From the IMG/VR virus record IMGVR_UViG_3300021400_000042: DNA of 64,000 bases; one strand, given 5' to 3'. This stretch comes from a virus. A model generated the notes under the pieces. The model was not told the origin of the DNA and made no database searches. It saw only the letters and a list, made by a program, of their open reading frames with translations. A program made the position numbers and the translations under genes. Every line of letters starts with the position of its first letter. Position 1 is the stretch's first letter. Positions 22,801 through 61,233 of the stretch are shown here, piece after piece.

Positions 22801-22868
22801 GCAGCGGCGGCAATAGCTATAACGGCGCGAGCAACTCCTACCCGCTGGCCCTGGGCTTCTCAATTTAA
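16839..22868 (+). CDS. giant receptor-binding / tail fibre protein; DGR target 1
   Basis: 2009 aa. Segments read by eye: BppU-N-like anchor, coiled coil, Gly linker, LamG-like segment, a CotH-like segment (DSRAKNLFM…EPYDMDTGLG), an LRR-like segment, and Listeria-Bacteroides-type repeats (YTVTWKNADGTTL…). The C-terminal domain ends …FWWCRSAGTNHGFSGVNSSGGNSYNGASNSYPLALGFSI, which is the VR. Confidence 0.9.
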   Translation: MIIHEFDLDMIPGGNVPSIRVNQYDEDFNLKINLFSRNGNFSVLSGTTALVRGTKPDGNAYSAEASVNGTVVTVTGNQQITAAAGRAIFEISLRRNGRELNTANFVIDIEQAAMDKDTVASTSVVRELVDIMDNSEEIINAGQQYENSQRAMEELTARSEAAAETATTMKTQTEEIATQTAEKWTEVSEQMDRKSAAIATLVSNADQVAAEASEKAGNALNEAAEVSNSLEDIQGKVTALELGQNNYVADGYVEDEEAVFVDKDGNEMFRITGIGGSGGGGGSSDQTVKSQVTMDNMTGWLSKTIAAGAECPVSFVWSSTMEGIPTGNGVVSVTVNNVVKATMDVAQGAVEIDLTPYMTASVNRVEVRVTDIEGQYKRINYSITIMQLSLSSTFDVATPYTGAIPFPYTPIGAVQKTVHFILDGTEIGTQQTSVTGRQMTYTIPAQAHGGHSIRVYFEAEINGETVRSNELYYEFTCLEAMSDEVIITSPYNQATQPQYTSIAIPFTVYDPVSPTAEVKIYANGELLSTQTVDRSEQSYTYRATEAGPLVIEIKSHETTKTFNIEITESDVHAEAETENLMLFLSSQGRSNNEENPWTWVSNVGENDVSAVLSGFNGASDGWQTDESGITCLRVTGGARVQIPYQIFAADARRTGLTFEIEYATRNVSDYNATILSCMNGGRGLEITPQRATLKSEQTELYMQYKEGEHIRVAYTIGKRSENRLVKSYIDGKIARVTQYPDDDDFAQVAPVGISIGSDNCTIDIYCIRVYTNDLTANQVMDNWIADTQDGSLMLERYARNQIFDAYGQVVPGQLPSNLPYMIIECEELPQYKGDKKTVNVSYTDPLYPSHSFTAEKVQANVQGTSSAPYAVKNLDLQFKGGFEMTTTGHSKLYRLRDDSMPTARFVLKADVASSESANNTQLVRLYNDLCPYKTPEMEEDERVRWGIDGIQIVMFWRDTVTGDLHFKGKYNFNFPKRFPEGYGYTEDQESWEWQNNTSDRMLFKSDDFDSIYTDPETLEQFPAWKNDFEARFPEDTWEDIDKLKEWISWVVSTDRDQATGDALEAPVTYDGTEYTADTAEYRLAKFKAELADYAEVDTLIFYYVWTEFFLMVDSRAKNLFMGFHGSPCEIEGSAIDRKIVAEPYDMDTGLGTNNEGTLTYTYSLEDLDTIAGADVFNGQHSVLWCNLRDTHRAAIVNMYQTLRSSGGLNYKAVEKRYEDAQNIWPEAVWNEDGRIKYTDPLTNPETGKEPTAFYLPMAQGSKEQQRKWWLGNRFAYMDSKWNAGDALAQVIQLRGYAKADITVTPYIDLYPTVKYGSYLVQQRGTAGTPATLACPMDSVNDTEIYIYSAPQIASVGDLSGLKVGVADFSQATNIQEVKLGDADPSYENNNMKRLSFGSNVLLKKIDVRNCAMLGTDEQKSVDVSNCAILEEAYFDGTAIQGLSLPNGGVLRVLHVPATMSNLTIRNQKNLAEFVIPSYSNISTLWLENNSAVIDTLDIVKKVPANARIHLVGVAWEAADAAEIRTVLDLLDTMRGLDDYGNNQDQAYVSGSIHTSSLTGAEVAEFEGRYPYLKILADHTTSYRTYADYDGTELKKVACIDGVPQESAPANPSRAQTAQYSYSFVGWSKSMNAETADSDALDNVIADRTIYAAYSKTVREYTVTWKNADGTTLRTDTLKYGATPSWGQAMPTNSSGQTAQGWTPTISTVTGNATYTASYIPVYNVYFYNGTTLLKEQQVQQGGNATPPSETPVSADGPDYEFTGWLPGYTNIQGNTSCYAQFKAPSAVKEITDDWATIVSKIANGTANYQVGNYKPLDLGTEGVVNMQIVGKNTSPLASGSGTATYDWLSMELLATDHRMNPSNNNNAEGTGSIGGWEKCEMRKYLKETIKPLIPETVRNAIKEVTKYSRIFDTSGTAVNDVASTEDVWIPSKREMFGAISNAETMGPIYDGIFTDNASRVKKKVGASSASFWWCRSAGTNHGFSGVNSSGGNSYNGASNSYPLALGFSI
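22735..22862 (+). repeat. DGR variable repeat 1 (VR1)
   Basis: 128 nt colinear with TR 23463-23590. All about 14 body mismatches fall on TR adenines (AAY codons). The 3' end reads GGGCTTCTCA versus TR GGGATCCTCA (IMH versus IMH*). Confidence 0.9.
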
Positions 22869-22880
22869 GCCCGTATCCAT

Positions 22881-22907
22881 GATCTGGCCCGCTTGTCGGG
22901 CCAGATC
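22881..22907 (+). promoter_or_regulatory. VR1-flanking hairpin (11-bp stem GATCTGGCCCG / CGGGCCAGATC, loop CTTGT)
   Basis: Perfect inverted repeat 18 nt after VR1. The same GCCCG-CTTGT-CGGGC core follows VR2. Confidence 0.7.
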
Positions 22908-23005: not shown

Positions 23006-23030
23006 GACGTGCTGAAAGTAGGTGAAAGCA

Positions 23031-23435
23031 ATGTCGGTCATCCGTAGTAAACGCGCGGAGTCCGAAATGGAGTTTATCCATACTGCCCGACAGCTTCAGG
23101 TCTATACGATTCAGAAGTGTGTCGGATTTCCCAAACGGTACACATTTTACATCGCCCAACCGATTGCAAATGCAGCTACACGGGTGCATGAGCTGACGAA
23201 GATGGCGAATAGTGTCTATCCCACCAATTCCCATGAAGTCCAGCTTCGGCGGGACTATCTCCTCAGAGCAAATGCAGAATTGAACAGCCTTGTCTCACAG
23301 ATCGAAGTCGCTCATGAGCTATTCGGTCTTGAACCCAATGTCATGAAATTCTGGATGGATCTGGTGGATAAGGAGATCCGTTTGGTAAAGGGAACTCTGA
23401 AAAAGGACAAAGAGCGTTACAAGAATATCACATAA
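23031..23435 (+). CDS. avd: DGR accessory variability determinant (Avd-like four-helix-bundle protein)
   Basis: ~134-aa basic helical protein between VR and TR, the canonical position. ATG 23031 follows AGGTGA (the track starts at GTG 23022). Confidence 0.7.
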   Translation: MSVIRSKRAESEMEFIHTARQLQVYTIQKCVGFPKRYTFYIAQPIANAATRVHELTKMANSVYPTNSHEVQLRRDYLLRANAELNSLVSQIEVAHELFGLEPNVMKFWMDLVDKEIRLVKGTLKKDKERYKNIT

Positions 23436-23462: not shown

Positions 23463-23590
23463 CGTCCAGCGCCTCGTTCTGGTGGTGCCGGTCCGCTAAT
23501 AACAACAATAACTTCAATGGTGTGAACAGCAGCGGCAACAATAACAATAACAACGCGAACAACTCCTACCCGCTGGCCCTGGGATCCTCA
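23463..23590 (+). repeat. DGR template repeat (TR)
   Basis: Non-coding copy of the VRs with a run of AAC/AAT codons, located between avd and RT. Confidence 0.9.
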
Positions 23591-23816
23591 TCTGTGAGAC
23601 AAAGTAACCCATGAGGGCGAAATCAGTGCAAGAGGATGAGAAGGAGAATAGAACCCTCCATGCGGAAGCATGGTAAATAATGCCCTTGATAGGTCTGGGC
23701 GGACGCTGCTTGCATGGCGGTGCTTGATGGTGATGCACCGTTTCATGCCCACTGACCTTACGCGGCTATATGTAACCATCCGGCAGCCGTACAGGGGCAA
23801 TTTTAAAAAAGGACTG

Positions 23817-24971
23817 ATGACAATGACCAGTGAAGAACGTCGGGAGGGACGGTATCAGAGAAGGATTGCAAAGCGCATGGCGAAGAGAAATCAGAGCCGT
23901 GCTTTTTGTGATGACTTCAACACCGTATTCTCTTATGAAAATCTTTACCGGTCATATAAGAAATGCCGCAGGAATGTGGCGTGGAAAGCATCCGTCCAGA
24001 AATACATCACGCAAGCGCCTTTGATGGTCAATCAGACATACGAAAAGCTGCAGGCGGGGAAATTCAAGTCCAGCGGCTTTTATGAGTTTGATATCAATGA
24101 GCGTGGGAAGATCCGGCATATTAAGTCGGTGACTATAACAGAAAGAGTGGTACAGCGCTGTCTGTGCGATAATGCGCTTGTACCCATGCTGAGTCCTACT
24201 TTCATCTATGATAATGGTGCTTCACTGGAAAACCGTGGATATCATTTCTCCATACGGCGGATGGTGAGACACCTGCAGGAGCATTACCGGAAACATGGTA
24301 CAGAAGGTTATGTCCTGCTTTTTGATTTTTCCAAATTCTTTGATAATGTCTCTCATGAACTGTGCAAGCAAATCATGAGAGAACAGTTCACCGATGAAAG
24401 GGTCATAGGTATCACAGATCATTTCATTGACATGTTCGGTGATGTCGGCCTGGGACTTGGAAGTCAGATCAGTCAGACATTCGCTCTGGCCTCTGCAAAT
24501 CGTCTCGATCATTATGTGAAAGAGGTACTGCGGATCAGAGGCTATGGACGGTATATGGATGACGGGTATCTGATTCACGAGAGTAAGGAATACCTGCAGC
24601 ACTGCCTGACGGAAATCCGGCGGGTATGTAGGGAACTTGGGATCACGATCAATGAGAAGAAAACGCAGATTGTGAAGATATCCCATGGTTTTACCTTCCT
24701 GAAAGCTCGTTTTTACCTCACTGAAACCGGAAAAGTTGTCCGGAAAATATATAAAAAGTCCATCGTCCGGGAGCGGCGCAAGCTGAAAAAGTTTGTGCCT
24801 CTTCTGGAAAACGGGGTCATGAGCTACACGGACGTTGCGACGGCCTTTCAGTCGTGGTGTGCGTATGCAAAGAACTTCAGCGCATGGCATACGATACAGA
24901 ATATGTGTCGATTGTATAATCAACTATTCATTTATCCCTGGATAATACAGGGAGGGACACAAGGTTGCTGA
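23817..24971 (+). CDS. DGR reverse transcriptase
   Basis: Motifs …LLFDFSKFFDNV…, GLGLGSQISQTFA (DGR-type SQ motif) and GRYMDDGYL. The start is uncertain (ATG 23817 or 23823; the track ORF starts at 23670). Confidence 0.9.
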   Translation: MTMTSEERREGRYQRRIAKRMAKRNQSRAFCDDFNTVFSYENLYRSYKKCRRNVAWKASVQKYITQAPLMVNQTYEKLQAGKFKSSGFYEFDINERGKIRHIKSVTITERVVQRCLCDNALVPMLSPTFIYDNGASLENRGYHFSIRRMVRHLQEHYRKHGTEGYVLLFDFSKFFDNVSHELCKQIMREQFTDERVIGITDHFIDMFGDVGLGLGSQISQTFALASANRLDHYVKEVLRIRGYGRYMDDGYLIHESKEYLQHCLTEIRRVCRELGITINEKKTQIVKISHGFTFLKARFYLTETGKVVRKIYKKSIVRERRKLKKFVPLLENGVMSYTDVATAFQSWCAYAKNFSAWHTIQNMCRLYNQLFIYPWIIQGGTQGC

Positions 24972-27967: not shown

Positions 27968-28222
27968 ATTACAAACGCCTGTAATATTCTGTAATATTGC
28001 GTAATTTTGTAATTTGGAATTCGGGAATCTCATTACAAAATTACGGAGTATTACAAAATCTGTAATCCGTGAAAGCCGCATAGAATAAGGCTTTATCTGC
28101 ATTTATTACAATATTACAAACATTTCTAATAGACCTATTGAAATAGAGAAAATAGAGAGTACATGTCCCGCCTGTCCCGCCTAATGCGAACACGTCTATA
28201 CGCGCGTGCGAGAAACGTAATT
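27968..28222 (+). repeat. copy 1 of a ~250-bp TTACAA/TTGTAA iteron-rich element (partner at 52452-52694)
   Basis: Colinear blocks are shared with copy 2: ATTACAAACG, GTAATATTGCGTAATTTTGTAAT, TTACAAAATTAC, TATTACAAA, AAATAGAGAG, TGTCCCGCCTAAT, AACACGTCTATA. There is an internal inverted repeat at 28001-28013 / 28032-28044. Confidence 0.75.
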
Positions 28223-31741: not shown

Positions 31742-33343
31742 TTACAGCAGGCCTTCAATGGCGAACACATCCAGGTGCATGTACCAGATCAGGCGGAGTG
31801 GTTCGCCTGTTGGTCGCTCAGGTACGGGTGAGCGACTACAGTCGAACACTTCAGAAGTGCCGTCTGTAGTCGCTTTTTCTATGTCTTCAACCTTGACTGT
31901 ATTCCCGTCTCCGCTGAAATTCAGCGTAATCAGGAAGTGATCGTCATACAGGAAGATGGCGTTGACAAAAGTATCGATCAGTCGCTTTTTAGCATCCAGA
32001 TTATCCGTGTCCATATCACGCATGGTTTCCAGGAAGAATTCAATGCGCTCTTTGGTCAGCTTTATTCCCTTTGCAAGCTCTCGGTCAGCGAGGGCCTTTT
32101 TTAATGCCGCTTTTTGCCCGTTCAGTTCATCCAGGCGCGTCTGTATCAGATCGAAGGGCATTCCGCTCTCAACCGATTTCACGAGGTTTGCAATTCCCTT
32201 TTCTACGCCGGCAAGTTCCGTCTGCATTGCCTGTATTTCTGTCTGTTCTGTATCTTGCTTCAGGTAGAATTCCCAAGTCTTATCTACGATCAGCTGGAAG
32301 ATCTCTGGATTGTGAAGAATCTCATGGATCTTTTCAAGGACCAGAGGTTCTATATAGTCTTGCCGGACGTTCTGCTTATCACAGCCTTTACCGTTATGCC
32401 GGTTCCAGCAGCCATAATAGCAGTGCTTATCTCCGGTTCTGCTGGTTCCGCTTTTTCCTACCATCGAGGATCCGCATTTTCCGCAGAACAGTTTTCCTGT
32501 CAGCAGATAATCAGAGTATGACCATTTATGCGATGGCATTCTTTTATTGATCTTCAGCATATCCTGTACCTTCCGGAACGTGTCCTTATCTACGAGGGCC
32601 GGAACCGCGTCTTCATCCCGGATTATGTCCTTGTAGATGTATGTGCCGATGTATAACTCGTTATGCAGCATCCTTTTCAGACTGCTGCGGTTAAAAGCTA
32701 CACCGCGTTGTGTGCGATGTCCCTGCTCATTCAGATACCGGATGATTTCAAATTCTGTGCTGCCGGCAGCATACATCTCAAAGATTTTCTTTGCAATCGG
32801 ACCGGTTACAGGATCGATCTCATATGTCTTATCTGCGGCAGCCCGGTATCCGAATGCGATTGCACGGCCGCCGGGGACGTGATGCTTCTTTGCGGCTTCC
32901 AGCAGGCCGCGTCTTACGTTCTGGGACAGCTGCAGGCTGTAATATTCAGCCATGCCTTCCAGGACGCTTTCCAGGATCACGCCTTCCGGTCCGTCTACTA
33001 CATTCTCAGCTACGTATTCGACGCGGACACCGTGCTTTTTCGCCTTGTATTTGTTGAACGTGATTTCTTCCCGGTTACGTCCGAACCGGTCAACCTTCCA
33101 GACGATGATGACACTGAACTGATGTTTTGCACAGTCGTGTAACATCTGCTGGAAGGCCTCTCTGTTGTCGTTTGTGCCGGTTTTAGCTCTGTCACAGTAT
33201 TCCCGGATGATAGTGTATCCCTTTTTCTCCGCGTATTTCTGTGCAGCGGCAAGCTGACCTTCAATGGAGGTCTCATGCTGTTTTGCTGATGAGAACCGGG
33301 CATATACGACAGCCATTTCTCCATCTGTCTTCTTACCAGTCAT
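31742..33343 (-). CDS. large serine recombinase (integrase)
   Basis: N-terminal resolvase domain (VVYARFSSAKQ…VWKVDRFGRN), recombinase domain, and a Zn-ribbon (CGKCGSSM…CYYGC) followed by coiled coil. Confidence 0.9.
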   Translation of the reverse strand: MTGKKTDGEMAVVYARFSSAKQHETSIEGQLAAAQKYAEKKGYTIIREYCDRAKTGTNDNREAFQQMLHDCAKHQFSVIIVWKVDRFGRNREEITFNKYKAKKHGVRVEYVAENVVDGPEGVILESVLEGMAEYYSLQLSQNVRRGLLEAAKKHHVPGGRAIAFGYRAAADKTYEIDPVTGPIAKKIFEMYAAGSTEFEIIRYLNEQGHRTQRGVAFNRSSLKRMLHNELYIGTYIYKDIIRDEDAVPALVDKDTFRKVQDMLKINKRMPSHKWSYSDYLLTGKLFCGKCGSSMVGKSGTSRTGDKHCYYGCWNRHNGKGCDKQNVRQDYIEPLVLEKIHEILHNPEIFQLIVDKTWEFYLKQDTEQTEIQAMQTELAGVEKGIANLVKSVESGMPFDLIQTRLDELNGQKAALKKALADRELAKGIKLTKERIEFFLETMRDMDTDNLDAKKRLIDTFVNAIFLYDDHFLITLNFSGDGNTVKVEDIEKATTDGTSEVFDCSRSPVPERPTGEPLRLIWYMHLDVFAIEGLL

Positions 33344-33824
33344 TTTGTAATTTCAACGCCTCCTGCATTGTCAGGACATCCATGTACGGATCAAAGAAGA
33401 TCACATAGTCCTGATATTTAACGTGCGTGCCGTATTTATCGTGATAGCATTCCAAGCAATCTCTGAGAAAGTTCTGTGGAACATCGAGATATTCTGCAGT
33501 CTCATACATGTTCTTACAGCCGGCCTCTTTTGCTTCGATAAGGCCGGGTAATCCGATCTGTACGTCAAAGGCCCACATCCTTGCTTTGCGCTCCTGCTTT
33601 CTGGATTCGGGCGTGTCATCGAGGATATCACCGGATGATGTGAAGTAATGTCCAAGCTCTTCAGCCAGGACGCACGCTTTCTTCCGGTAGGTGGGTATAG
33701 TGCGACGGATAGCTACACGGTTGCCTTTGATACGTCCGTCATAGGCCTGCAGATCCTTTTCTCTGGTTACAAGGCCAAGGCTGTCAGCTACGGCAAGTAA
33801 GCCATCATAAGTCATGTAAACCAT
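33333..33824 (-). CDS. ImmA/IrrE-family metallopeptidase
   Basis: HEXXH-type motif LAEELGHYF. It is adjacent to and co-oriented with the XRE repressor. Confidence 0.7.
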   Translation of the reverse strand: MVYMTYDGLLAVADSLGLVTREKDLQAYDGRIKGNRVAIRRTIPTYRKKACVLAEELGHYFTSSGDILDDTPESRKQERKARMWAFDVQIGLPGLIEAKEAGCKNMYETAEYLDVPQNFLRDCLECYHDKYGTHVKYQDYVIFFDPYMDVLTMQEALKLQNDW

Positions 33825-33875
33825 CCCCTTTTACAGTTACATACCAAAAGCGTTGTCCGCGCAGGGTTACAATGG

Positions 33876-34361
33876 TCAAAAGTCATCGCCGTCCATGATG
33901 TCTTCATCATGAGCGATCATCTCCGGAGTTACCTTCACATCTGTTCTGACATGGGCGGCATTCGGAAGGGAGTCAAGATACTTATCCTGCATGAGCATCC
34001 CCTGGATGACACCTTCAGCCCGTAGACGGTCAGCCGGATCCAGTTTGCTGATTAGCTGCATCAGGTTGCTGTCAGCAGCAGGCCGCTGAAATGAAACAGT
34101 TTTCTGGGGAGCCGGATCCGCCGGTTTTGTTTTTCCCTTTGCATAATCGGTCGGATCATCGGTCCGGCCTAAAAGATAGTCTGTCGATACTTCCAGCGCG
34201 TCAGCGACGGCGGCCACAGTATTACCCAACGGCGTGATGTCCTTAGTGTTCCATTTTGAGATTGTTGCTTTTGTCGATCCAAATAGGCTGGCGGCCTTCT
34301 GAGAACACGGTTCCAGTCCACGCTTTTCCGCGATTGCAGCATATCTGTCATAGAAAGACAA
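33876..34361 (-). CDS. XRE/CI-type repressor (ImmR-like)
   Basis: N-terminal HTH (…SQKAASLFGSTKATISKWNTKD…VADALEVSTDYLLGRTD). TTG start preceded by GAGGTGA. Confidence 0.8.
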   Translation of the reverse strand: MSFYDRYAAIAEKRGLEPCSQKAASLFGSTKATISKWNTKDITPLGNTVAAVADALEVSTDYLLGRTDDPTDYAKGKTKPADPAPQKTVSFQRPAADSNLMQLISKLDPADRLRAEGVIQGMLMQDKYLDSLPNAAHVRTDVKVTPEMIAHDEDIMDGDDF

Positions 34362-34401: not shown

Positions 34402-34430
34402 TTGACAAGTTGAATTTGTTTTGCTACACT
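34402..34430 (+). promoter_or_regulatory. rightward early promoter (TTGACA - 17 nt - TACACT)
   Basis: Its spacer is nearly identical to that of the 28266 promoter (AGTTGAATTTGTTTTGC versus AGTCGAAATAAGTTTGC). Confidence 0.55.
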
Positions 34431-43282: not shown

Positions 43283-44637
43283 GAGAAACGAACCTGATAA
43301 TAGATTGCTTTGCCGGCGGAGGAGGGGCTTCCGTCGGTATCGAAATGGCGGTAGGCCGCAGCGTAGATATCGCGGTAAACCATGATCCGCAGGCCATACG
43401 GATGCATACCGTCAATCACCCGAAAACACTTCATCTGACAGAGGATATCTTTGAGGTTGATCTGCAGAAATATGTTGGTGGCCGTCATGTGGCCCTTATG
43501 TGGGCTTCTCCGGACTGTACGCAGTTCAGTAAGGCCAAAGGTGGAAAGCCCCGTGTGAGCGGGATCCGGATGCTTCCCTGGGCGGTATATAAACACGCGA
43601 AGGCTGTACAGCCGGATGTCATCATTATGGAAAACGTCGAGGAGATCCAGCAGTGGGGTCCTCTGGATGAGAACGGCAGACCGATAAAAGAAAAGATGGG
43701 TGAAGAGTATTCCCGGTTCATATCGGCAGTCAAAGGTTTGGGCTATGTGTTTGACAGCAGAGAACTGATTGCAGCTGATTACGGCGCTCCCACGACACGG
43801 AAACGCTGGTATGCGATATTCCGCAGAGACGGCAGGCCAATTACCTGGCCGCAGCCGTCTCATTTCAGAGATGCGGAACCGCGCTGGAAGCCATGCGGAG
43901 ATTATATAGACTGGTCGGATCTGGGGCAGTCGATCTTTAACCGAAAGAGGCCGTTGGCGGAGGCTACACAACGCAGGATAGCGAACGGTATACGTAAGTA
44001 TATCGTCGAGAATCCGGATCCGTACATCGTGAAGGATGAAAAGGCCCTGGCCTTCATCATCCAGTATCACGGAGAACAGAAGGATGGGGATAGCCGGGGA
44101 CAGGTCCTCACAGAGCCAATCAGAACTATAGACACGTCAAATCGGTACGGACTGGTAACGGCCTTTGTGACGAAGTTCTATAAAACCGGGATCGGGCAGG
44201 GGTGTGACGAACCGCTGCATACGATCACAACAAGCCCCGGACACTTTGGCGTGATATCGGCATTCTTGGTCAAGTATTACGGGCAGGGATGCGGTCAGCA
44301 GGTATCAGAACCGCTGGCAACGATCACGACAAAAGACAGGTTTGGTCTGGTTAATGTACTGCTGACTATAGATGGTCAGAAATACGTTATTTCAGATATA
44401 TTTCTGCGAATGCTGAAGCCTACAGAACTGAAGGTTATGCAGGGATTTCCGAATGATTACATCATCGGATATGACCTGTCATGGAGGAAGATGTCTGTAG
44501 CAGAGCAGGTCGCAAAAATAGGAAACAGCGTTTCCCCGCCGGTTGCTAAAGCACTTGTGGAGGCGAACTGTGCATATCTCAAAGAGGGCGAGAGGAAACC
44601 GATAATCAGTTTTGACAGACTGGAAAAGACCGGTTGA
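43279..44637 (+). CDS. DNA (cytosine-5)-methyltransferase
   Basis: Motif I DCFAGGGG, motif IV SPDCTQFS, motif VI IMENV, and C-terminal QGFPNDY and GNSVSPPV. Confidence 0.85.
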   Translation: MRETNLIIDCFAGGGGASVGIEMAVGRSVDIAVNHDPQAIRMHTVNHPKTLHLTEDIFEVDLQKYVGGRHVALMWASPDCTQFSKAKGGKPRVSGIRMLPWAVYKHAKAVQPDVIIMENVEEIQQWGPLDENGRPIKEKMGEEYSRFISAVKGLGYVFDSRELIAADYGAPTTRKRWYAIFRRDGRPITWPQPSHFRDAEPRWKPCGDYIDWSDLGQSIFNRKRPLAEATQRRIANGIRKYIVENPDPYIVKDEKALAFIIQYHGEQKDGDSRGQVLTEPIRTIDTSNRYGLVTAFVTKFYKTGIGQGCDEPLHTITTSPGHFGVISAFLVKYYGQGCGQQVSEPLATITTKDRFGLVNVLLTIDGQKYVISDIFLRMLKPTELKVMQGFPNDYIIGYDLSWRKMSVAEQVAKIGNSVSPPVAKALVEANCAYLKEGERKPIISFDRLEKTG

Positions 44638-44650
44638 ATAAGGAGGCATT

Positions 44651-45256
44651 ATGAAAATCGGAAGAGAGATCAAAGAGACCTGGGCAGAAATCGAAGAGCT
44701 TCAGAAGAATGGCGCATTGCTGAATCGGTGCGTTCCCGGGGATTACAAGCTCGTAGATTTTGGAGAGGATGGCGTTATCAGAATGCGCTTTGCCGGATTA
44801 CATAAGGACGTAAGGGAATATGGAGAACCGGCTTATGCAACATGGGTTGCAGGAGATCTGACTGCAAAGAGACACCAGATGCACAATGACTGGTTTGGTG
44901 AGTACAGCAAATCGGATCTTAGAAAATGGCTGAACGATGAACTGTATAACCGGCTGCCGGATGACCTGAAGAGAATCATCGTTCCTGTGCTGAAACGGCA
45001 GGTGGCGTATGACGCGGACTGGAATTGCTACACAGATGAAGTGGTGGATAAAATCTGGATCCCGTCGTTTGCGGAGCTATTTGAGGGCGGATATCCTGAT
45101 CTGTTTACAGACGATGAGAGCCGCGCTATGGGTGCGTTTTATTGGTGCCGGTCCGCTTATAACGGCAATTACTTCAGTGGTGTGGACAGCAGCGGCAACA
45201 ATAGCCATGACATCGCGGACTACTCCTACCCGCTGGCCCTGGGCTTCTCAACCTGA
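44651..45256 (+). CDS. stand-alone DGR target 2 (C-type-lectin-fold / DUF6273-like variable protein)
   Basis: 201 aa, homologous to the last ~190 aa of the 2009-aa RBP (…IWIPS..E.F…FYWCRSA…SYPLALGFS). The C-terminus is VR2. Confidence 0.85.
   Translation: MKIGREIKETWAEIEELQKNGALLNRCVPGDYKLVDFGEDGVIRMRFAGLHKDVREYGEPAYATWVAGDLTAKRHQMHNDWFGEYSKSDLRKWLNDELYNRLPDDLKRIIVPVLKRQVAYDADWNCYTDEVVDKIWIPSFAELFEGGYPDLFTDDESRAMGAFYWCRSAYNGNYFSGVDSSGNNSHDIADYSYPLALGFST
45143..45250 (+). repeat. DGR variable repeat 2 (VR2)
   Basis: Colinear with TR 23483-23590. About 13 body mismatches all fall on TR adenines. It has the same IMH GGGCTTCTCA as VR1. Confidence 0.85.
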
Positions 45257-45265
45257 TCTTGAATC

Positions 45266-45286
45266 CGCGCCCGCTTGTCGGGCGCG
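45266..45286 (+). promoter_or_regulatory. VR2-flanking hairpin (CGCGCCCG-CTTGT-CGGGCGCG)
   Basis: 8-bp perfect stem 15 nt after VR2. The core and loop are identical to the VR1 hairpin. Confidence 0.65.
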
Positions 45287-45320
45287 TAAACCAAAAACAG
45301 GAAGGAGGAAAAGACCAAAT

Positions 45321-45527
45321 ATGAAGGTCACATTGTTTTCGACAAACTGTCCGCGCTGTAAAGTCCTGGCACAGAAATTAACGGATAAGGGTATTGAATT
45401 CAATATCTCGGAAGACGTTGATGAGATGATCCGCAGGGGCTTCAGAAGTGCGCCGGTATTGGATGTTGACGGAAACTCGATGAATTTTAGTGATGCAATC
45501 AACTGGGTTGACGGCAGGGAAGGATAA
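45321..45527 (+). CDS. nrdH: glutaredoxin-like protein (NrdH-like)
   Basis: MKVTLFSTNCPRCKVL… contains a CxxC motif. It lies upstream of nrdD; RBS GGAGGA. Only the 3' part of track ORF 45009-45527 is used. Confidence 0.65.
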   Translation: MKVTLFSTNCPRCKVLAQKLTDKGIEFNISEDVDEMIRRGFRSAPVLDVDGNSMNFSDAINWVDGREG

Positions 45528-45529
45528 CT

Positions 45530-47449
45530 ATGTACATACCTATCAAAGTAAACAAGGACTTTGAAAGAGTCCTTGACGGGTTGATTAAGAAGTATGGCGA
45601 AGACTTTGAAACCCTGAACGGTTTTCACGAGTCTCAGCTGAATTTTTCGGATTTTATCGATGGGTTCATTGATAAGAATGTGGCGGATGCTACGATTGAC
45701 AGCAATGCGAACGCCCATCATAAGGACATCCGAAGCATGATGAATGAGAAGGGCAAATCGGAAGACAAGCTCTTCTGCTACAACAAAATCTATTTTGAAC
45801 TGAAAAAGAAATATGGTCTCAGGACAGCAAACGAGTGGCTGGAAACGGAGTACAACGGCGGGTTCTATCTGCATAATGCTCACACGAGTTCCATGATCCC
45901 GTATTGCTATGCTTACGATCTCAGCAGACTGGCAACAGAGGGACTTTTCTTCCTGGAAAACTACAACAATGAAGCTCCGAAGCACCTGACTACATTCCTG
46001 GATGACCTGATCGAATTTATCAGTTTCATGTCTAATCGCAGTTCAGGGGCCTGTGGTATCCCGAATGTCCTTCTGTGGACTATGTATTTCTGGAAGAAGG
46101 ACTGTGATAACGGGTACTACATCAAAGATCCGGATTATTACATCCGGCAGTGTTTCCAGAAGTTTATTTACAGAATGAATCAGCCATTTATCAGGGTCGA
46201 TCAGAGCGCCTTTGTCAATGTATCGATCTTTGACCGACATTACTATGAAGCTCTTTTCGGTGGGGTAACCTTCCCGGATGGATCCTTTGCCATTGATTAT
46301 GTGGACCTGTTCATGGAGCATCAGAAAGTGTTCATGGAGGTTGTTTCGGACATCCGCAGCGCCAATATGTTCACGTTTCCGGTTCTGACCTATTCCCTGC
46401 TTTTCAAAGACGGAAAGTTTGCAGATGAGGAATTTGCAAGATGGTGTTCTGACCATAACTGTACCTGGAACGACAGCAATTTCTTCCAGAGCGAAAGCAC
46501 GGGAACGCTGTCAAACTGCTGCCGGCTTTTATCCGATACAACGAAGCTGGATGCCTTTATCAATTCCATCGGCGGCACGGCCCTTTCCATCGGATCCGTA
46601 CAGGTCAACACAATCAATCTGGTAAGGATTGCTTACGAGGCCGAAGGGGACGAAGAGAAGTATCTGGAAATCCTGAAGAAACGTGCGCTGCTTTGCTGTA
46701 AGGTGCTGGACGTTGTGCGGCACATCATAAAACGGAACATCGAAAAGGGCCTGCTGCCGAATTACTGTGACGGCGGGATCGAGCTGGAAAAGCAGTATGC
46801 TACACTGGGCATTTTGGGATTATTTGAAACGGTGGAAGCATTCGGTCATACGGTCCGGGATGAGTTCGGAAACGTCTCATACACGGATGAAGGTATTGCC
46901 CTGGCGGATCAGATTTTCAAGGTCCTCAATGATGTGAAGGATACCTTCCCGAAGGATTATTCCTTCAATATCGAGTCAGTGCCGGCGGAACGGGCAGCAG
47001 TCATCCTGTGCCAGAAGGACAATCTGCTGTATGAGAAGAACGAGAAGTTCATCTATTCAAATCAGTGGATCCCGCTCTCAGAGAAATGCACGATTCAGGA
47101 AAAGCTCAGACTCAGCTCTATTCTGGATGAGAAGTGTTCCGGCGGAGCGATAGCACATATCAACCTGGAACAGAATTTCCCGAATACGGAAGTAGCCTGG
47201 AAGATGCTGAACTATATCGCGTCTCAGGGAGTGTTCTACTTCGCTTTCAATACCCGGATCAATGAGTGCAAAAACCATCACGGTTTTGTGGGTACGGATA
47301 CATGCCCGGTATGTGGGGAGCCTGTCTATGACACCTATCAGCGGATCGTGGGGTTCCTGGAACCGCGCCGGACATATTCCAAAGACAGGAAGCGTGAGTT
47401 TGATACCCGTAAATGGTATGAGTATGCGGATCTGAAAGGTGAGATATGA
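45530..47449 (+). CDS. nrdD: anaerobic ribonucleoside-triphosphate reductase
   Basis: 639 aa with a C-terminal Zn site CPVCGEP and a glycyl-radical-like motif RIVGFL. Confidence 0.8.
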   Translation: MYIPIKVNKDFERVLDGLIKKYGEDFETLNGFHESQLNFSDFIDGFIDKNVADATIDSNANAHHKDIRSMMNEKGKSEDKLFCYNKIYFELKKKYGLRTANEWLETEYNGGFYLHNAHTSSMIPYCYAYDLSRLATEGLFFLENYNNEAPKHLTTFLDDLIEFISFMSNRSSGACGIPNVLLWTMYFWKKDCDNGYYIKDPDYYIRQCFQKFIYRMNQPFIRVDQSAFVNVSIFDRHYYEALFGGVTFPDGSFAIDYVDLFMEHQKVFMEVVSDIRSANMFTFPVLTYSLLFKDGKFADEEFARWCSDHNCTWNDSNFFQSESTGTLSNCCRLLSDTTKLDAFINSIGGTALSIGSVQVNTINLVRIAYEAEGDEEKYLEILKKRALLCCKVLDVVRHIIKRNIEKGLLPNYCDGGIELEKQYATLGILGLFETVEAFGHTVRDEFGNVSYTDEGIALADQIFKVLNDVKDTFPKDYSFNIESVPAERAAVILCQKDNLLYEKNEKFIYSNQWIPLSEKCTIQEKLRLSSILDEKCSGGAIAHINLEQNFPNTEVAWKMLNYIASQGVFYFAFNTRINECKNHHGFVGTDTCPVCGEPVYDTYQRIVGFLEPRRTYSKDRKREFDTRKWYEYADLKGEI

Positions 47450-47916
47450 AGATAAAGGTCGTGAATGTAATAGATGAGGATTTCTCAAATTACAAACGTG
47501 CATCCATGACCATAGGTTTTCCGTTCTGTACTTTCAAGTGTGGGCGGCAGGTGTGTCAGAACGGCACACTTGCCGCAGCCCCAAAGATCGAGATAGAGGC
47601 GGCGGATCTGGTAGAGCGGTACATGAAAAATCCCATTACGGAAGCAATCATCTTTCAGGGATTGGAACCGTTCGACTCTCCGGAGGTCTTTGATCTGGTA
47701 GCGGAATTCCGAGATAAGACGGATGACACGATTGTGATTTATACCGGCTACACAAGGGAAGAGGCGGATGACAGAGCATGGATAGATTACTTGAAGTTCT
47801 TCCCGAATATCATTGTGAAGTACGGCCGGTTTATCCCCGGACAGGAACCACACTTTGATGAGGTTCTGGGAGTAAACCTTGCTTCTGATAACCAGTATGC
47901 AGTGAAGGAGTCCTGA
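47446..47916 (+). CDS. nrdG: probable NrdD-activating radical-SAM-like protein
   Basis: Position after nrdD and a Cys cluster FCTFKCGRQVC. The cluster spacing is atypical, hence moderate confidence. Confidence 0.5.
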   Translation: MKIKVVNVIDEDFSNYKRASMTIGFPFCTFKCGRQVCQNGTLAAAPKIEIEAADLVERYMKNPITEAIIFQGLEPFDSPEVFDLVAEFRDKTDDTIVIYTGYTREEADDRAWIDYLKFFPNIIVKYGRFIPGQEPHFDEVLGVNLASDNQYAVKES

Positions 47917-47917
47917 C

Positions 47918-48310
47918 ATGAAAAAGATACATCCCTGGATCAGAGCAATGATTATTGTGATCGGGCTTTTGCTGATACTGACCGCTGTGCTGCACTTCCG
48001 GCAGCAGAGGCAGCAGCGGGAAATGGATAAGCAGGAGCTTCACTATGACGCTGACAACTATTTCCTCATGATCGATGCCACAAACGGGATTGCAGGATTT
48101 TACTTTTGCGCTCACCCGCTTACGCACATGCGGATCCGGACGGACGCGCTTGACGGTGTGTATGATGCATATTTCCATGATGGGTATATGTATTTGGAGC
48201 ATACAAAGCAGGACGCGACAATTCAGGTCCCATTGACAAGGCGGCAGGCGGCATGGATAGAGGCAGAATATGAGGACGGGTTTCCGGCCTTGGTGTACAG
48301 GAGGCGGTAG
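47918..48310 (+). CDS. membrane-anchored hypothetical protein
   Basis: N-terminal TM segment IRAMIIVIGLLLILTAVL. Confidence 0.5.
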   Translation: MKKIHPWIRAMIIVIGLLLILTAVLHFRQQRQQREMDKQELHYDADNYFLMIDATNGIAGFYFCAHPLTHMRIRTDALDGVYDAYFHDGYMYLEHTKQDATIQVPLTRRQAAWIEAEYEDGFPALVYRRR

Positions 48311-49017: not shown

Positions 49018-49171
49018 CAGGGGTAAGATCCTCGCTTTAAAGAAAGCGGGTTGGAAGGTGAAGGATATTGCGGAAGATATGGGGTTGGAAGCATCGACTG
49101 TATCACAGGTCCTCTGGCAGGAGAACCGGAAAGCAAAGCAAGTGGGGAAAGATGAGAACGCGCTGTTATAA
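48893..49171 (+). CDS. HTH-domain ORF (…RGKILALKKAGWKVKDIAEDMGLEASTVSQVL…) lacking a convincing start of its own
   Basis: Coordinates follow the track ORF. The first ~40 codons are an alternate frame of the previous gene. It is possibly joined to the previous gene by slippage at A10. Confidence 0.35.
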   Translation: MQLSRMRRKRRLMGAKLHRRKLRQKLLRIRTKKKRSGKRNIDRGKILALKKAGWKVKDIAEDMGLEASTVSQVLWQENRKAKQVGKDENALL

Positions 49172-49556
49172 GTGTTTTGGAGCGGCGATGGATGATTGTA
49201 AAGATTGTGAAAGGATATATGCCATGACAGTACAGGAATATCAGGATAAAGCAAGACGGACACAGGCGCAGGGATTGAATCAGGAAGAGAGAATGCTTCA
49301 TGCAGCTCTGGGCCTGACATCGGAAGCCGGTGAGGTGTCCGGGATCCTGCAGAAGAAATATCAGGGTCATCCGGTTGACCGGGATCATCTGATTAAGGAA
49401 CTGGGTGATTGCCTTTGGATGATCGCGGAAGCGTGCGACGCTATTGACGTTCCGATGGAATACGTGATGGCAGTCAACATTAAGAAGCTGGAAGAGAGGT
49501 TCCCGGAAGGGTTTTCTGCTGAGAAATCGCTACACCGGAAAGAAGGAGACATCTGA
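49152..49556 (+). CDS. MazG-like nucleotide pyrophosphohydrolase (possibly with an N-terminal CxxC…CxxC finger)
   Basis: …EYQDKARRT…LGLTSEAGEV…ELGDCLWMIA…NIKKLEERF. The start is uncertain (49152, 49188 or 49224). Confidence 0.65.
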   Translation: MRTRCYKCFGAAMDDCKDCERIYAMTVQEYQDKARRTQAQGLNQEERMLHAALGLTSEAGEVSGILQKKYQGHPVDRDHLIKELGDCLWMIAEACDAIDVPMEYVMAVNIKKLEERFPEGFSAEKSLHRKEGDI

Positions 49557-49759: not shown

Positions 49760-49904
49760 TTGGGACGAAGACGCAGGCAGGTTTATCCCTTGCTCGGATT
49801 GCTGCTGGAAATGTGATGATGATTATTCCCTTTTCGGAGAGCCGGGACCGGGCTGCAAAAGTTGTCCGTTTTGTCATAAGCCGGGAAATAATACAGTCGA
49901 ATGA
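49662..49904 (+). CDS. membrane-anchored Cys-rich hypothetical protein
   Basis: TM segment LIFRLLGLVIIITIIALWISAMI followed by CSDCCWKC…CKSCPFC. Confidence 0.4.
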   Translation: MVTLIFRLLGLVIIITIIALWISAMIAPTMPDSWDEDAGRFIPCSDCCWKCDDDYSLFGEPGPGCKSCPFCHKPGNNTVE

Positions 49905-49918
49905 AGTTGTCTGTCTGA

Positions 49919-49947
49919 TTGACAGATGATTTCTTTTGACTTATAAT
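49919..49947 (+). promoter_or_regulatory. consensus promoter (TTGACA - 17 nt - TATAAT) for the primase operon
   Basis: Read directly. The operator-like AGTTGAACGAAATCGACT at 49956-49973 follows. Confidence 0.7.
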
Positions 49948-50009: not shown

Positions 50010-52478
50010 ATGAAACTACAGTATGACCGACAGCTCACTATTTCAGTAGGGAACAGTCGGAAGGACATGAATTGGAAACCACAAACACTGACGATCGGTG
50101 AGTTGTGGGAAAGACTCAAAGTACCGGCAAGGGGTACGGAAACCATATCTCAATACCTTGCACTCAAAAAGGCGCAGCAGGACGAACTGAAGGACGTTGG
50201 CGGTTTTATGGCCGGTACACTGAGCGGCGGCAGGCGTAAAGCCTCCGCCGTTACCGGCAGGGATGTGGTCACGCTGGACTTTGATACCATTCCAGCCTAT
50301 GGCACGGAAGGCGTGCTGAAGGCAGCCGATAACCTGGGCTGCGGGTATGCCGTTTATAGTACCAGAAAGCATATCGAGACAGCGCCGCGCCTGAGATTAC
50401 TTTTCCCTCTGGATAGAACAGTATCGGCAGATGAGTATGAACCGATTGCCCGGTGGATGGCTGCACAGATCGGCATTCAGATGGCGGATCCTACCACGTT
50501 TGAACCGTCACGCCTTATGTACTGGCCTTCCTGTAGCGTGGACAGCGACTATGTATTCAAGTACAAGGACGCGCCACTTGTGAAGGCCGACGGCGTGCTG
50601 AACAGCTACACAGACTGGCGGGACTTCTCATCCTGGCCGCAGGTTCCCGGAGCTGTCAGCTATCAGCGCCTTGCTACAAAGCAGGGTGATCCGGATACAA
50701 AACCGGGTGTCGTGGGCGCTTTTAACCGGGCATACGGGGATGTCTATACCGTCATGGACAAGGTTATCCCTGGTATCTATGATCCGGTTGACGGAGATCC
50801 GAACAGATTCACGTATCTGGGCGGCAGCACGACAGGCGGCGCGGTGGTGTACGACAACGGAAAGTTCTTGTATTCCCATCATGCGACGGATCCGTGCGGC
50901 GGAAAGCTGGTCAACTGTTTTGATCTGGTACGCCTTCACAAGTTTGGTGACAAGGACGATGAGGCAGCGGCCGGCACTCCGAATAACCGTCTTCCGTCCT
51001 ATCTGGCCATGTGTGAGTTCGCGGTTGCGGATCCCTTGTGTTCTGCACTGATGGCGAAGGAACGCCACGAAGAGGCCATGAAGGATTTTGACGGCGTTGG
51101 GGCAGATAATCACGATGACCCGGCCAACTGGATGCAGAAGCTCGATCTGAACGCCAAATCAGGCCTTGTAAAGCCTACCATTGACAACATTCTCATAATC
51201 CTTGACAACGATCCGATGCTGAAGAAAAAGTTCGCACTGAATCAGTTTGCAGGGCGCGGGGAGATCCTGGGGCAGCTTCCCTGGTCGAACGATAAGACGC
51301 GCCGGCTGTGGTCCGATACGGACAGCAACGGCCTTTACTGGTATCTGGAAAAGGCCTACCAAATCACCGGCAGAGGGAACATTGACGCGGCGCTGGATAT
51401 TCACGCAGCCACGCACGCATTCAATGAGGTGCAGGATTATCTGAAGAGTCTGGAATGGGACGGTGTGCCGCGTCTGGACACGCTCTTTATCGACTATCTG
51501 GGGGCGGAGGATGACGCGGCGGGATACTGCAGGGCAGTGTGTCGGAAGTCCTTCACGGCGGCCGTAGCGCGTGCCATGGAGCCGGGTTGTAAGTTCGATA
51601 ACATGCTGATTCTTTGTGGTCCGCAGGGCATCGGAAAGTCAACCATATTAGACCGCATGAGTCACGGCTGGTTCAATGACAGTATCCGGACGTTTGAAGG
51701 CAAGGAAGCGGCGGAGCTGCTGCCGGGTGTCTGGATCGTGGAGGTGGCGGAGCTGGATGCATTTCGGCGGACGGACGTTGCCCGTATCAAACAGTTCCTC
51801 TCACTGAGATCTGACAGGTACAGAGCAGCATACGGACGGAACATGAAGGAACAGCCACGGACATGCATCTTCTTTGGAACCTGTAACCAGATGGACTTCC
51901 TGCAGGATACGACAGGAAACCGGAGGTTCTGGCCGGTGGACGTGGGGAAAAAGCTACACCCTAAGAATGTATGGAAGGATCTGACCGATGAAACGGTAGC
52001 GCAGGTCTGGGCGGAAGCAAAAGTCAGATGGCAGATGGGTGAACAGCTCTATCTCACGGGTGATCTGGAAGAGGCCGCAAAGGAACATCAGGAGCAGCAC
52101 AGAGACACTTCACCGTGGGAAGGCATGATACATGAATTCATGGCAAAGCCGGTTCCGGATGACTGGTTGAAATGGGATCTGGACAGGCGGCGCGACTTCT
52201 GGGCGGCAAACGTGAAGGGCAGTTATAACCTGGTTCCCCGTGATCGGATAACAGCTATTGAAGTATGGTGCGAAATGTTCATGGGGAGAAAAAACGATAT
52301 GAAAGCTAATGATCGGAAGGAAATAAATGCGTGTTTGGCGAATGCAAAGGGCTGGATCCGGGCAGATAAGCCGTTTTATGCAGGAATACCCTATGCGACG
52401 CAGAGAGGGTTTATTTCCAATATGACAGGCGTTCAGGCGGCATATAACCAAATTACAAACGGATGTAATATCCCGTAA
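50010..52478 (+). CDS. primase-helicase (primase-polymerase N-terminal domain plus VirE/D5-like P-loop domain)
   Basis: 822 aa with Walker A LCGPQGIGKST and a VirE-like region …VEVAELDAF…. Confidence 0.8.
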   Translation: MKLQYDRQLTISVGNSRKDMNWKPQTLTIGELWERLKVPARGTETISQYLALKKAQQDELKDVGGFMAGTLSGGRRKASAVTGRDVVTLDFDTIPAYGTEGVLKAADNLGCGYAVYSTRKHIETAPRLRLLFPLDRTVSADEYEPIARWMAAQIGIQMADPTTFEPSRLMYWPSCSVDSDYVFKYKDAPLVKADGVLNSYTDWRDFSSWPQVPGAVSYQRLATKQGDPDTKPGVVGAFNRAYGDVYTVMDKVIPGIYDPVDGDPNRFTYLGGSTTGGAVVYDNGKFLYSHHATDPCGGKLVNCFDLVRLHKFGDKDDEAAAGTPNNRLPSYLAMCEFAVADPLCSALMAKERHEEAMKDFDGVGADNHDDPANWMQKLDLNAKSGLVKPTIDNILIILDNDPMLKKKFALNQFAGRGEILGQLPWSNDKTRRLWSDTDSNGLYWYLEKAYQITGRGNIDAALDIHAATHAFNEVQDYLKSLEWDGVPRLDTLFIDYLGAEDDAAGYCRAVCRKSFTAAVARAMEPGCKFDNMLILCGPQGIGKSTILDRMSHGWFNDSIRTFEGKEAAELLPGVWIVEVAELDAFRRTDVARIKQFLSLRSDRYRAAYGRNMKEQPRTCIFFGTCNQMDFLQDTTGNRRFWPVDVGKKLHPKNVWKDLTDETVAQVWAEAKVRWQMGEQLYLTGDLEEAAKEHQEQHRDTSPWEGMIHEFMAKPVPDDWLKWDLDRRRDFWAANVKGSYNLVPRDRITAIEVWCEMFMGRKNDMKANDRKEINACLANAKGWIRADKPFYAGIPYATQRGFISNMTGVQAAYNQITNGCNIP

Positions 52479-52694
52479 TATTGCGTAATTTTGTAATGCG
52501 GTTGTCTTACAAAATTACAGGATATTACAAACGTTGTAATCTCGGAAAGCCTTATTTTATCAGGGTTTCAAGAGAATATTACAAAATTACAATTATTTCT
52601 ATAGAGGTATAGAAATAGAGAGAACAGGGGGTATATGTACTCCCTGTCCCGCCTAATCGCAACACGTCTATAACGCGCGCGCGAAAGTGTAATT
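52452..52694 (+). repeat. copy 2 of the iteron-rich element; candidate replication origin
   Basis: It starts inside the last 9 codons of the primase-helicase gene. Inverted repeat GTAATTTTGTAA / TTACAAAATTAC lies at 52485-52518. It is colinear with 27968-28222. Confidence 0.75.
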
Positions 52695-60705: not shown

Positions 60706-61233
60706 ATGGCGTTCGCAAAGGGGAATCAGTACGGCAAAAAGCCGAAGTATAAGACACCCGAAGAAATACAGGAAAAAATAGATGCATACTTTGAGGAGTG
60801 TAAAGGTACACTCCTTGAAGATCATAACGGAGATCCGATCATTGACAGGTGGGGCAATCCGGTATATCTGGACAGGAAGCCGCCCACGGTCACGGGGCTG
60901 GCGCTTGCCCTGGGATTTAAAACGCGCCGCGCCTTAATGCTCTATCAGGCAAAGAAAGAGTTCATGGACGTGATACTGGAAGCGAAGTCCCGGATAGAGA
61001 TGTACAACGAAGAACAGCTCTTTTCCCGCGACGGGTCCAGAGGCGCACAGTTCTCTCTGCAGCATAACTTCCAGGGGTGGCAGGAAGAGAAGGAAGACGA
61101 TAAGAAAGGTGCAGCGGTCAATATCATCAATGATATTCCGAAGGGGACTGTCACGGTGAACACGGACACGGCGGTGTTCAATGCATTGCAGAAGCCGGAG
61201 GATGAAGCTACACAGGATGCCGGCGAAGAGTAA
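60706..61233 (+). CDS. terS: terminase small subunit
   Basis: MAFAKGNQYGKKPKYKTPEEIQEKIDAYFEEC…PPTVTGLALALGF… is typical of TerS. It is adjacent to TerL. Confidence 0.75.
   Translation: MAFAKGNQYGKKPKYKTPEEIQEKIDAYFEECKGTLLEDHNGDPIIDRWGNPVYLDRKPPTVTGLALALGFKTRRALMLYQAKKEFMDVILEAKSRIEMYNEEQLFSRDGSRGAQFSLQHNFQGWQEEKEDDKKGAAVNIINDIPKGTVTVNTDTAVFNALQKPEDEATQDAGEE

Follow-up and report, generated by a model that had tools for sequence, protein, structure and literature searches.

A stand-alone DUF6273 gene among the early genes of a temperate phage is very probably a second, remote target of its diversity-generating retroelement

A 64,000-nucleotide (nt) stretch of viral DNA (IMG/VR record IMGVR_UViG_3300021400_000042; hereafter, the window) was analyzed around a small gene at 44651-45256, whose 3' end resembles the template repeat (TR) of a diversity-generating retroelement (DGR) located about 21 kb away. 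The window contains a single DGR cassette, in the order of a tail-fibre gene with the first variable repeat (VR1), an Avd-like open reading frame (ORF), the TR, and the reverse transcriptase (RT) gene. We consider it very probable that the 201-amino-acid (aa) ORF is a genuine second target of this single DGR, acted on in trans and still diversifying, of the type found in phages Shimadzu and FP_Toutatis. The relevant features, including the initiation-of-mutagenic-homing (IMH) sequences, are listed below.

44651-45256, + strand: gene for a stand-alone DUF6273 protein of 201 aa, the probable second DGR target (ORF listing, Pfam, AF2, dN/dS)
45123-45250, + strand: VR2, at the 3' end of the 201-aa ORF; the ungapped core homologous to the TR runs from 45143
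45241-45250, + strand: VR-type IMH, GGGCTTCTCA, the same in VR1; the TR has GGGATCCTCA (IMH*); kept in the related contigs L001-L005
45266-45286, no strand assigned: GC-rich hairpin 15 nt past VR2, CGCGCCCG-CTTGT-CGGGCGCG, with an 8-bp stem (DNA fold z=-3.4)
16839-22868, + strand: tail-fibre gene, 2009 aa, with VR1 at its 3' end and DUF6273 in the C-terminus (Pfam)
22735-22862, + strand: VR1, with 14/14 mismatches to the TR at adenines (P=2e-9)
22881-22907, no strand assigned: GC hairpin after VR1, GATCTGGCCCG-CTTGT-CGGGCCAGATC, with an 11-bp stem (z=-3.5)
23022-23435, + strand: Avd-like accessory gene, 137 aa, in the position of Avd, with a weak match to NCBIfam DivGenRetAVD
23463-23590, + strand: TR, non-coding, between the Avd-like gene and the RT gene
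23670-24971, + strand: DGR RT gene, 433 aa (RVT_1, E=5e-18; GSQISQ and YMDD motifs)

When the window was searched for repeats, one three-copy family was found, consisting of VR1, the TR, and VR2 at the coordinates given above. The original prediction had reported that positions 45143-45250 are colinear with the TR at 23483-23590, and a gap-free alignment with 14 mismatches in total (~87% identity) was indeed obtained. The predicted repeat length of ~108 nt was accurate for the core starting at 45143, whereas the family alignment begins earlier, at 45123. Similarly, ~13 body mismatches had been counted, all on adenines; the number is 12, and all 12 do fall on TR adenines (33 A in 101 nt; hypergeometric P=3e-7), with the codon changes given as examples (AAT>TAT, AAC>GGC, AAC>TAC, and AAC>ATC) correct. 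The remaining two VR2/TR mismatches (A>C and C>T) lie within the terminal decamer, which had been noted to be the same in VR2 as in VR1 and which, as listed, reads differently in the TR. A comparison of VR1 with VR2 residues within the genome was uninformative, with 2/6 co-mutated sites the same and A>G dominating anyway.

The hairpins that follow VR1 and VR2 have a common core as well as the loop CTTGT, and both fold far better than shuffled sequence (z~-3.4). In the same folding comparison, nothing comparable was found downstream of the TR. The IMH and the hairpin are both kept 3' of the orthologous gene in five related contigs (L001-L005), one of them encoding a protein 67% identical to that of the window. 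According to a published summary (PMC5758913), target recognition by the Bordetella phage DGR is marked by a VR-type IMH with a GC inverted repeat behind it, and by this analogy the VR2 hairpin is taken to be a DGR target-recognition element. The hairpin was also considered as a terminator, and this was rejected, as a T-tract is lacking and the nrd genes follow. VR2 thus has the features of a DGR variable repeat: differences confined to adenines, the IMH/IMH* split, a GC inverted repeat, a cognate RT, and natural diversification. The predicted second, remote DGR target was borne out in this respect by the TR/VR2 repeat, its A-specificity, the IMH, and the hairpin.

Natural variation was assessed by a homologue search of 5.8 billion proteins, which returned 27 close homologues; one 90%-identity cluster alone comprised 116 distinct sequences. 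In the alignment, residues 1-169 are near-invariant among close relatives and residues 170-194 are hypervariable. The variable columns correspond exactly to the 15 AAY codons of the TR, the observed residues fit AAY>NNY, and Y, S, G, and N are abundant at these sites. In 25 homologue pairs with identical residues 1-165, a mean of 14/25 VR residues differ. Since VR divergence stays flat as scaffold divergence rises, it is saturated. Diversification of VR2 is, judging from these sequences, ongoing.

Pattern scans of IMG/VR yielded one TR contig and one VR2 contig, both from a single metagenome. When VR2 of L001 was compared with the TR of L017 (IMGVR_UViG_3300026549_000747), separate contigs from one IMG/VR metagenome, 18/18 body mismatches were at A. 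In L001 (10470-10500, corresponding to window 45123-45143), the TR homology of VR2 reaches ~12 nt further 5' (GCCTCGTTCTGGTGGTGCC), with ASFWWCRSA encoded in place of the window's GAFYWCRSA. This boundary shift is evidence that the 5' cDNA crossover point probably differs in that lineage, and a variable 5' crossover is expected of mutagenic retrohoming (PMC5758913). The TR and its 3' flank (window 23463-23612) are identical at 150/150 nt in L017, an independent IMG/VR contig, in contrast to a dS of 0.6-0.8 in other genes of related phages. Either the TR is under very strong constraint or L017 is a very close relative.

The 201-aa protein matches Pfam DUF6273 (PF19789) with 41.1 bits (cut-off, 23.5; E=2.3e-10), as does the fibre C-terminus. 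Residues 5-200 align with fibre residues 1788-2008 (32% identity, E=3e-29), and the small protein is therefore essentially one fibre-tip domain and nothing else. The originally described homology, confined to the C-terminal domain of the fibre, held. The reported lack of a virion-anchoring domain, a signal peptide, and a transmembrane segment agrees with the single domain found here. Neither a signal peptide nor a transmembrane helix was seen, as judged by charge and Kyte-Doolittle hydropathy only: the N-terminus (MKIGREIKETWAEIEELQK) is charged, and no hydrophobic segment is present (maximum Kyte-Doolittle value over 19 residues, 0.45). Ig domains were detected neither by Pfam nor in the structural model, and searches with PADLOC (defence models only) and NCBIfam gave no match.

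A confident AF2 model (pLDDT 95.5, pTM 0.91) was obtained with a 44-sequence alignment; a model from a shallow 24-sequence alignment (pLDDT 59.8) was discarded. In BFVD, the model matches predicted viral proteins with DUF6273, as well as receptor-binding proteins and tail-collar fibres, from metagenomes of gut phages (E values down to 3e-10). A C-type-lectin/DUF6273 fold had been anticipated, and the DUF6273 part was recovered by both Pfam and BFVD. The DUF6273 fold is called C-type-lectin-like in the literature; here, C-type-lectin similarity is only weak. In Foldseek, classical C-type lectins appear at E~0.25-2, as does 4eps, a fimbrial protein of Bacteroides ovatus. A profile search of PDB sequences gave spurious TIM-barrel matches only, and the Bordetella phage protein Mtd was absent both from these and from the top Foldseek PDB matches. 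The protein is also not a tentaclin as described by Baykov (2023), having 201 aa, one domain, and a C-terminal VR.

Between the window and its relatives, codons 1-165 have a dN/dS of 0.10-0.135 at a dS of 0.57-0.79, and in the VR codons dN is far above dS. The length of the ORF is held at 199-201 aa in relatives down to 58% identity. These comparisons indicate that the scaffold is under purifying selection.

In the mechanism that we propose, the TR at 23463-23590 would be transcribed and then copied to cDNA by the RT, probably with the Avd-like protein, and the template adenines would be read as any base during copying. The cDNA would then replace VR2, 21.7 kb away. Targeting would depend on the VR-type 3' end and the GC hairpin with the loop CTTGT, which are common to VR2 and VR1 and which the TR is without. 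The expected outcome is that 15 AAY codons close to the C-terminal end of the free-standing DUF6273 domain are randomized, with ~4e17 possible combinations.

The genes and candidate signals surrounding the small target are as follows.

43279-44637, + strand: C5 cytosine DNA methyltransferase gene (PF00145, E=7.6e-26), directly upstream of the small-target gene
44640-44646, + strand: Shine-Dalgarno sequence AAGGAGG, 4 nt before the ATG of the small-target gene
45321-45527, + strand: nrdH-like glutaredoxin gene (Pfam Glutaredoxin), directly downstream of the small-target gene
45530-47449, + strand: nrdD (Pfam NRDD, PF13597, E=2e-88)
47446-47916, + strand: nrdG-like gene (Pfam Fer4_12)
31742-34361, - strand: lysogeny module with a large serine integrase, an ImmA-like metalloprotease, and a repressor
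34402-34430, + strand: candidate early rightward promoter, TTGACA-17-TACACT with TG, beside the divergent repressor gene (consensus scan only)
49903-49947, + strand: terminator-like hairpin (13-bp stem) overlapping a 12/12 sigma-70 consensus, TTGACA-17-TATAAT, just upstream of the VapE primase gene (consensus scan only)

The predicted location between a C5 methyltransferase and nrdH/nrdD, with a ribosome-binding site and a gap of 13 nt, matched in every detail, the 13 nt separating the methyltransferase stop codon from the ATG of the small target. Because the serine integrase, the ImmA-like protease, and the repressor are present, the phage is temperate. The rightward early block contains a DUF2800/PD-(D/E)XK nuclease, an Enc34-type single-stranded DNA (ssDNA)-binding protein, DNA polymerase A, ThyX, and DUF6378, along with the C5 methyltransferase, the DUF6273 target, the NrdH-like protein, NrdD, the NrdG-like protein, the VapE primase, and an SNF2 helicase. 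TerL lies at 61181. Genes for the head, the tail, the DGR, and the lysin are located within 71-27919. From the gene order and the 13-nt gap, we infer that the small target is co-transcribed with the early genes; a promoter of its own is unlikely, since the gene is packed tightly behind its upstream neighbour. The promoter-like site at 34402-34430 may start the transcription unit that holds the VR2 gene, and the site at 49903-49947 is a candidate for the end of the early transcription unit or for a boundary between two early/middle units.

The placement in the early/replication block, which had also been predicted, was seen in the window and is conserved in relatives. In relatives of 81% identity, the gene order around the small target is identical to that of the window. 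In the 67% relative, the methyltransferase-target pair is kept and the downstream genes differ, and in a 58% relative the target gene is located between DUF551 and NADAR, still in the replication block. Eight stand-alone lineages were examined, and in each of them the gene maps to an early/replication or lysogeny-proximal region, never to the structural block; the gap to the upstream early gene is 9-59 nt. Two further, more distant stand-alone DUF6273 families also map to early regions. P0028 (210 aa) has DNA polymerase A and ThyX as its neighbours, and P0191 (256 aa) is flanked by early helix-turn-helix (HTH) genes and an integrase. Both families are hypervariable in the same C-terminal segment. 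This conserved early placement is a real lead on function.

Strict adjacency to a methyltransferase was considered as a functional clue and rejected. The window, L005, Dulem virus 34, and Shimadzu show it, L012, L013, and L015 do not, and gp24 of FP_Toutatis is several kb away from any of its methyltransferases. What is conserved is the early module and not the methyltransferase. A Band_7/prohibitin-family gene was observed close upstream of the small target in L005 (7712-8572, the 67% relative) and in L006, FP_Toutatis (9627-10538), and is thus, after the methyltransferases, another neighbour that recurs.

Megablast of window 42000-48000 against annotated phages gave no match, and tblastn of the small protein matched Dulem virus 34 solely. 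A profile-based homologue search gained almost nothing over the single-sequence search, and a scan of genome contigs returned only one close prophage-like relative, in a Eubacterium sp. metagenome-assembled genome (MAG).

Non-adjacent second targets within ~50 kb are common among phage-associated DGRs (PMC5758913), and distant second targets have been reported in Bacteroides uniformis phages (PMC8143477). The description of the gene as an unusual use of a DGR was not upheld, because Shimadzu, Dulem virus 34, and FP_Toutatis all have the same layout, in which the small target frequently comes directly behind a methyltransferase. The window phage is instead a well-sampled addition to the already described Shimadzu-type two-target phage DGRs (orf43, gp24). 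Its small protein has the properties of the orf43 type, namely a single DUF6273 domain of ~200-260 aa with a C-terminal VR, encoded in the early region away from the cassette, in a phage whose other, cassette-adjacent target is a tail or decoration protein.

In Roseburia phage Shimadzu (Cornuault et al., 10.1101/575076, later ISME J), both VRs were experimentally shown to mutate. There, of the virion reads covering the two VRs, 2% have 10-15 mismatches of the DGR type, each ultravirulent mouse isolate has ~10-15 changes per VR, and orf43 is called "of unknown function" (10.1101/575076). In its genome (LR596903), VR1 (18935-19063) lies in the tail fibre orf22 and is followed by Avd, the TR (19582-19710), and the RT; VR2 (33466-33594) forms the 3' end of orf43, a 209-aa DUF6273 protein encoded directly behind the methyltransferase orf42 and ahead of Erf, a single-stranded DNA-binding protein (SSB), and a replication initiator. 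Like the window phage, Shimadzu is a temperate Firmicutes gut phage with a large serine recombinase, and its single-domain DUF6273 target with a C-terminal VR lies in the early region, 13.9 kb away (the TR-VR2 distance in the window is 21.7 kb). In both phages, mismatches occur only at A, the 3' ends of VR and TR differ by C versus A, and GC hairpins follow both VRs. The RTs are 49% identical, whereas orf43 shows only ~26% identity to the small protein of the window over a short stretch (E=2e-9). Shimadzu is a 45-kb myovirus with a 431-aa fibre, compared with a 2009-aa fibre and a genome of at least 64 kb here, and downstream of its small target are Erf and SSB instead of nrdH/D/G.

In Dulem virus 34 (PP511788), VR1 is located in a 900-aa Big_3+DUF6273 fibre, followed by an Avd-like gene, the TR, and the RT (18094-22877). 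The gene for a 221-aa DUF6273 protein (35648-36313), 14.8 kb off and directly after an adenine methyltransferase, carries VR2 at its 3' end. This protein has 27% identity to that of the window over its full length, and the RTs are 34% identical. Dulem virus 34 is a 45-kb myovirus from lemur faeces, and in its record the DGR is apparently unannotated, with the relevant genes labelled "Ig-like domain protein" or "hypothetical protein."

FP_Toutatis (Faecalibacterium phage, NC_047915) encodes gp24, a 215-aa DUF6273 protein whose VR matches the TR at 49076-49179 and whose neighbours are, as in the window, early genes (methyltransferases, prohibitin, and replication initiator). Egorov et al. (10.1101/2024.10.15.618418) counted gp24 among the core genes, with its equivalent in 98.8% of Toutatisvirus genomes, placed it at a distance of 17,480 nt from the TR (circular map), and suggested a receptor-binding role. 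An equivalent "small DGR target" has been described in phage Lelie (PMC11792537). However, gp24 has no BLASTP similarity to the window protein, its VR is not at the extreme C-terminus, and the DGR-adjacent target of FP_Toutatis is a Hoc-like/tentaclin protein and not a giant fibre as in the window. In the FP_Toutatis RefSeq record (L006, 49048-49200), a 50-aa "DUF6273 domain-containing protein," gp80, coincides with the TR and is probably a spurious coding-sequence call on it.

Other systems resemble the window less closely. Target2 of nd4/nd12 (Baykov et al. 2023, PMC10743442) is likewise a second target consisting of a single DUF6273/C-lectin-like domain (234-294 aa) with a C-terminal VR, but its genes are inside the DGR cassette beside tail genes and not in the early region. 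Mtd of Bordetella phage BPP-1 also has a C-terminal VR on a lectin-like domain, with Avd/TR/RT, an IMH, and a downstream GC hairpin. It is, however, cassette-adjacent, 381 aa long, and trimeric, with an N-terminal beta-prism and beta-sandwich for fibre attachment. The window protein is without these parts and is not an Mtd-like receptor-binding protein, as residues 5-200 of its 201 residues align to the fibre C-terminal domain. In multicellular bacteria and cyanobacteria, DGR-diversified lectin-like domains act inside the cell as sensors or binders (PMC10907252, PMC7517822). These are cellular genes fused to signalling/STAND domains, unlike the phage-encoded single-domain protein described here.

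One alternative is that VR2 arose by chance, or by ordinary paralogy or recombination of two lectin-domain genes, with no retroelement acting on it. The two proteins are paralogues, and nothing beyond this speaks for such an origin. Outside the repeat they are only 32% identical, whereas the repeat is ~87% identical to a non-coding TR, its body mismatches are all at A (P=3e-7), and homologues with identical scaffolds show near-saturated differences limited to AAY codons. The A-only mismatches, the AAY-confined hypervariability, and the L017/L001 replicate refute this explanation, to which we assign practically no weight. The gene could also have no function and be a decaying copy of the fibre tip, still hit by the DGR because the IMH and hairpin were retained, as its paralogy to the fibre C-terminus and its identical cis elements would allow. 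Such decay is very improbable given the low dN/dS of the scaffold at a dS of up to 0.79, the full-length ORF in relatives down to 58% identity, and the recurrence of the layout in several phage lineages, including the Toutatisvirus core gene. A functional second target of the DGR is thus retained, and what is at issue is where its product acts.

We tentatively favour, at a little under even confidence, the view that the protein works away from the virion and within the infected or induced cell, where it would be a variable binder expressed along with the methyltransferase and replication genes. This role is favoured because the protein consists of the binding domain only and has no docking module, because the gene is early or lysogeny-proximal in 8/8 stand-alone lineages and lies 9-59 nt behind an early gene, and because cytoplasmic DGR-diversified lectin-like domains are known in bacteria (PMC10907252, PMC7517822). 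Like the early placement and the missing anchor, the purifying selection on the scaffold speaks for it circumstantially. Several points weigh against it. The early timing is read only from gene order, tight spacing, and consensus promoter/terminator scans. All functionally characterized phage DGR targets are, to our knowledge, virion surface proteins, and the detectable relatives of the small protein include fibre tips and annotated receptor-binding proteins. For the DGR assignment and the fold, the Avd-like protein reaches only 19.5 bits against NCBIfam NF033474 (cut-off, 80; E=9e-4), and the best Foldseek match among solved structures is weak (Legionella Lcl C-terminal domain, E=0.025). The Avd assignment is accordingly weaker than that of the RT, since it relies on position and on similarity to Shimadzu Avd (26% identity) and to the protein that occupies the place of Avd in Dulem virus 34 (30%). 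A virion component, held with still less confidence yet a real contender, would be an accessory receptor-binding or adhesin module that docks non-covalently on the fibre, baseplate, or capsid, its gene simply being placed apart from the structural ones, and provides a second, independently variable specificity. The protein is homologous to the fibre's own tip domain, its structural neighbours are annotated as tail-collar fibres and receptor-binding proteins, and receptor binding is assumed for single-domain DUF6273 targets (PMC10743442; 10.1101/2024.10.15.618418); the Y/S/G/N-rich variable sites fit a binding surface, yet do not discriminate between hypotheses. Set against this are the lack of an extra N-terminal docking module in a protein that is all binding domain, the location outside the structural block in 8/8 stand-alone lineages, and the 9-59-nt gap, which makes a late promoter of its own unlikely. 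A soluble lectin released by lysis or non-classical export, coating debris, neighbouring cells, or gut glycans and, for example, guarding progeny from dead-end adsorption or serving as a lysogenic-conversion factor, appears improbable. The window phage is temperate, and a 2026 preprint found a prophage DGR-diversified DUF6273 (tentaclin) protein in a bacterial secretome without particles (10.64898/2026.05.08.723808). However, the small protein lacks both a signal peptide and a hydrophobic segment, and selection on VR2 variants would presumably be weak once the product is uncoupled from its encoding genome, whereas the scaffold and cis elements are nonetheless well maintained.

The intracellular role can be extended to a broader and more doubtful proposal, which we regard as possible but rather unlikely. 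The small DUF6273 targets of early regions would belong to one conserved class of binders that are encoded by phages, diversified by DGRs, and active inside the cell. Expressed alongside the early methyltransferase and replication genes, they would serve as an adaptive, antibody-like counter-measure by neutralizing or recruiting variable proteins of the host or of rival phages, and would not bind surface receptors. The class would include the window protein, Shimadzu orf43, Toutatis gp24, the Dulem virus 34 protein, and the P0028 and P0191 families, with defence systems and superinfecting phages as putative partners. An adaptive anti-defence binder is an attractive hypothesis and may apply here.

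Nearly all explanations of phage DGRs see them as a means of changing receptor specificity. In the window phage and three described ones, one retroelement also randomizes a free-standing domain that has no virion anchor and is encoded among early genes. The window lineage is useful in this regard, with many natural variants, purifying selection on the scaffold, and intact cis elements in common with VR1. Together with the cultivable Shimadzu, it makes testable whether the second target is on the particle or in the cell. If the target works in the cell, a phage would for the first time be seen to direct programmed hypervariation at a partner inside the cell; if it belongs to the virion, the recruitment of a soluble lectin module without a docking domain would be demonstrated.

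Two further observations were made elsewhere in the window. A non-coding block of ~230 nt with short repeats of the TTACAA/TGTAAT type is present twice, at 27968-28200 after the endolysin gene and at 52452-52672 between the VapE primase gene and the SNF2 helicase, with 74-91% identity. These blocks may be regulator-binding arrays or promoter regions at transcription-unit boundaries. In addition, tandem 153-nt (51-aa) repeats with 76-80% identity occur at 10904-11460 within the 1626-aa ORF at 7766-12646, which presumably encodes the tape-measure protein.

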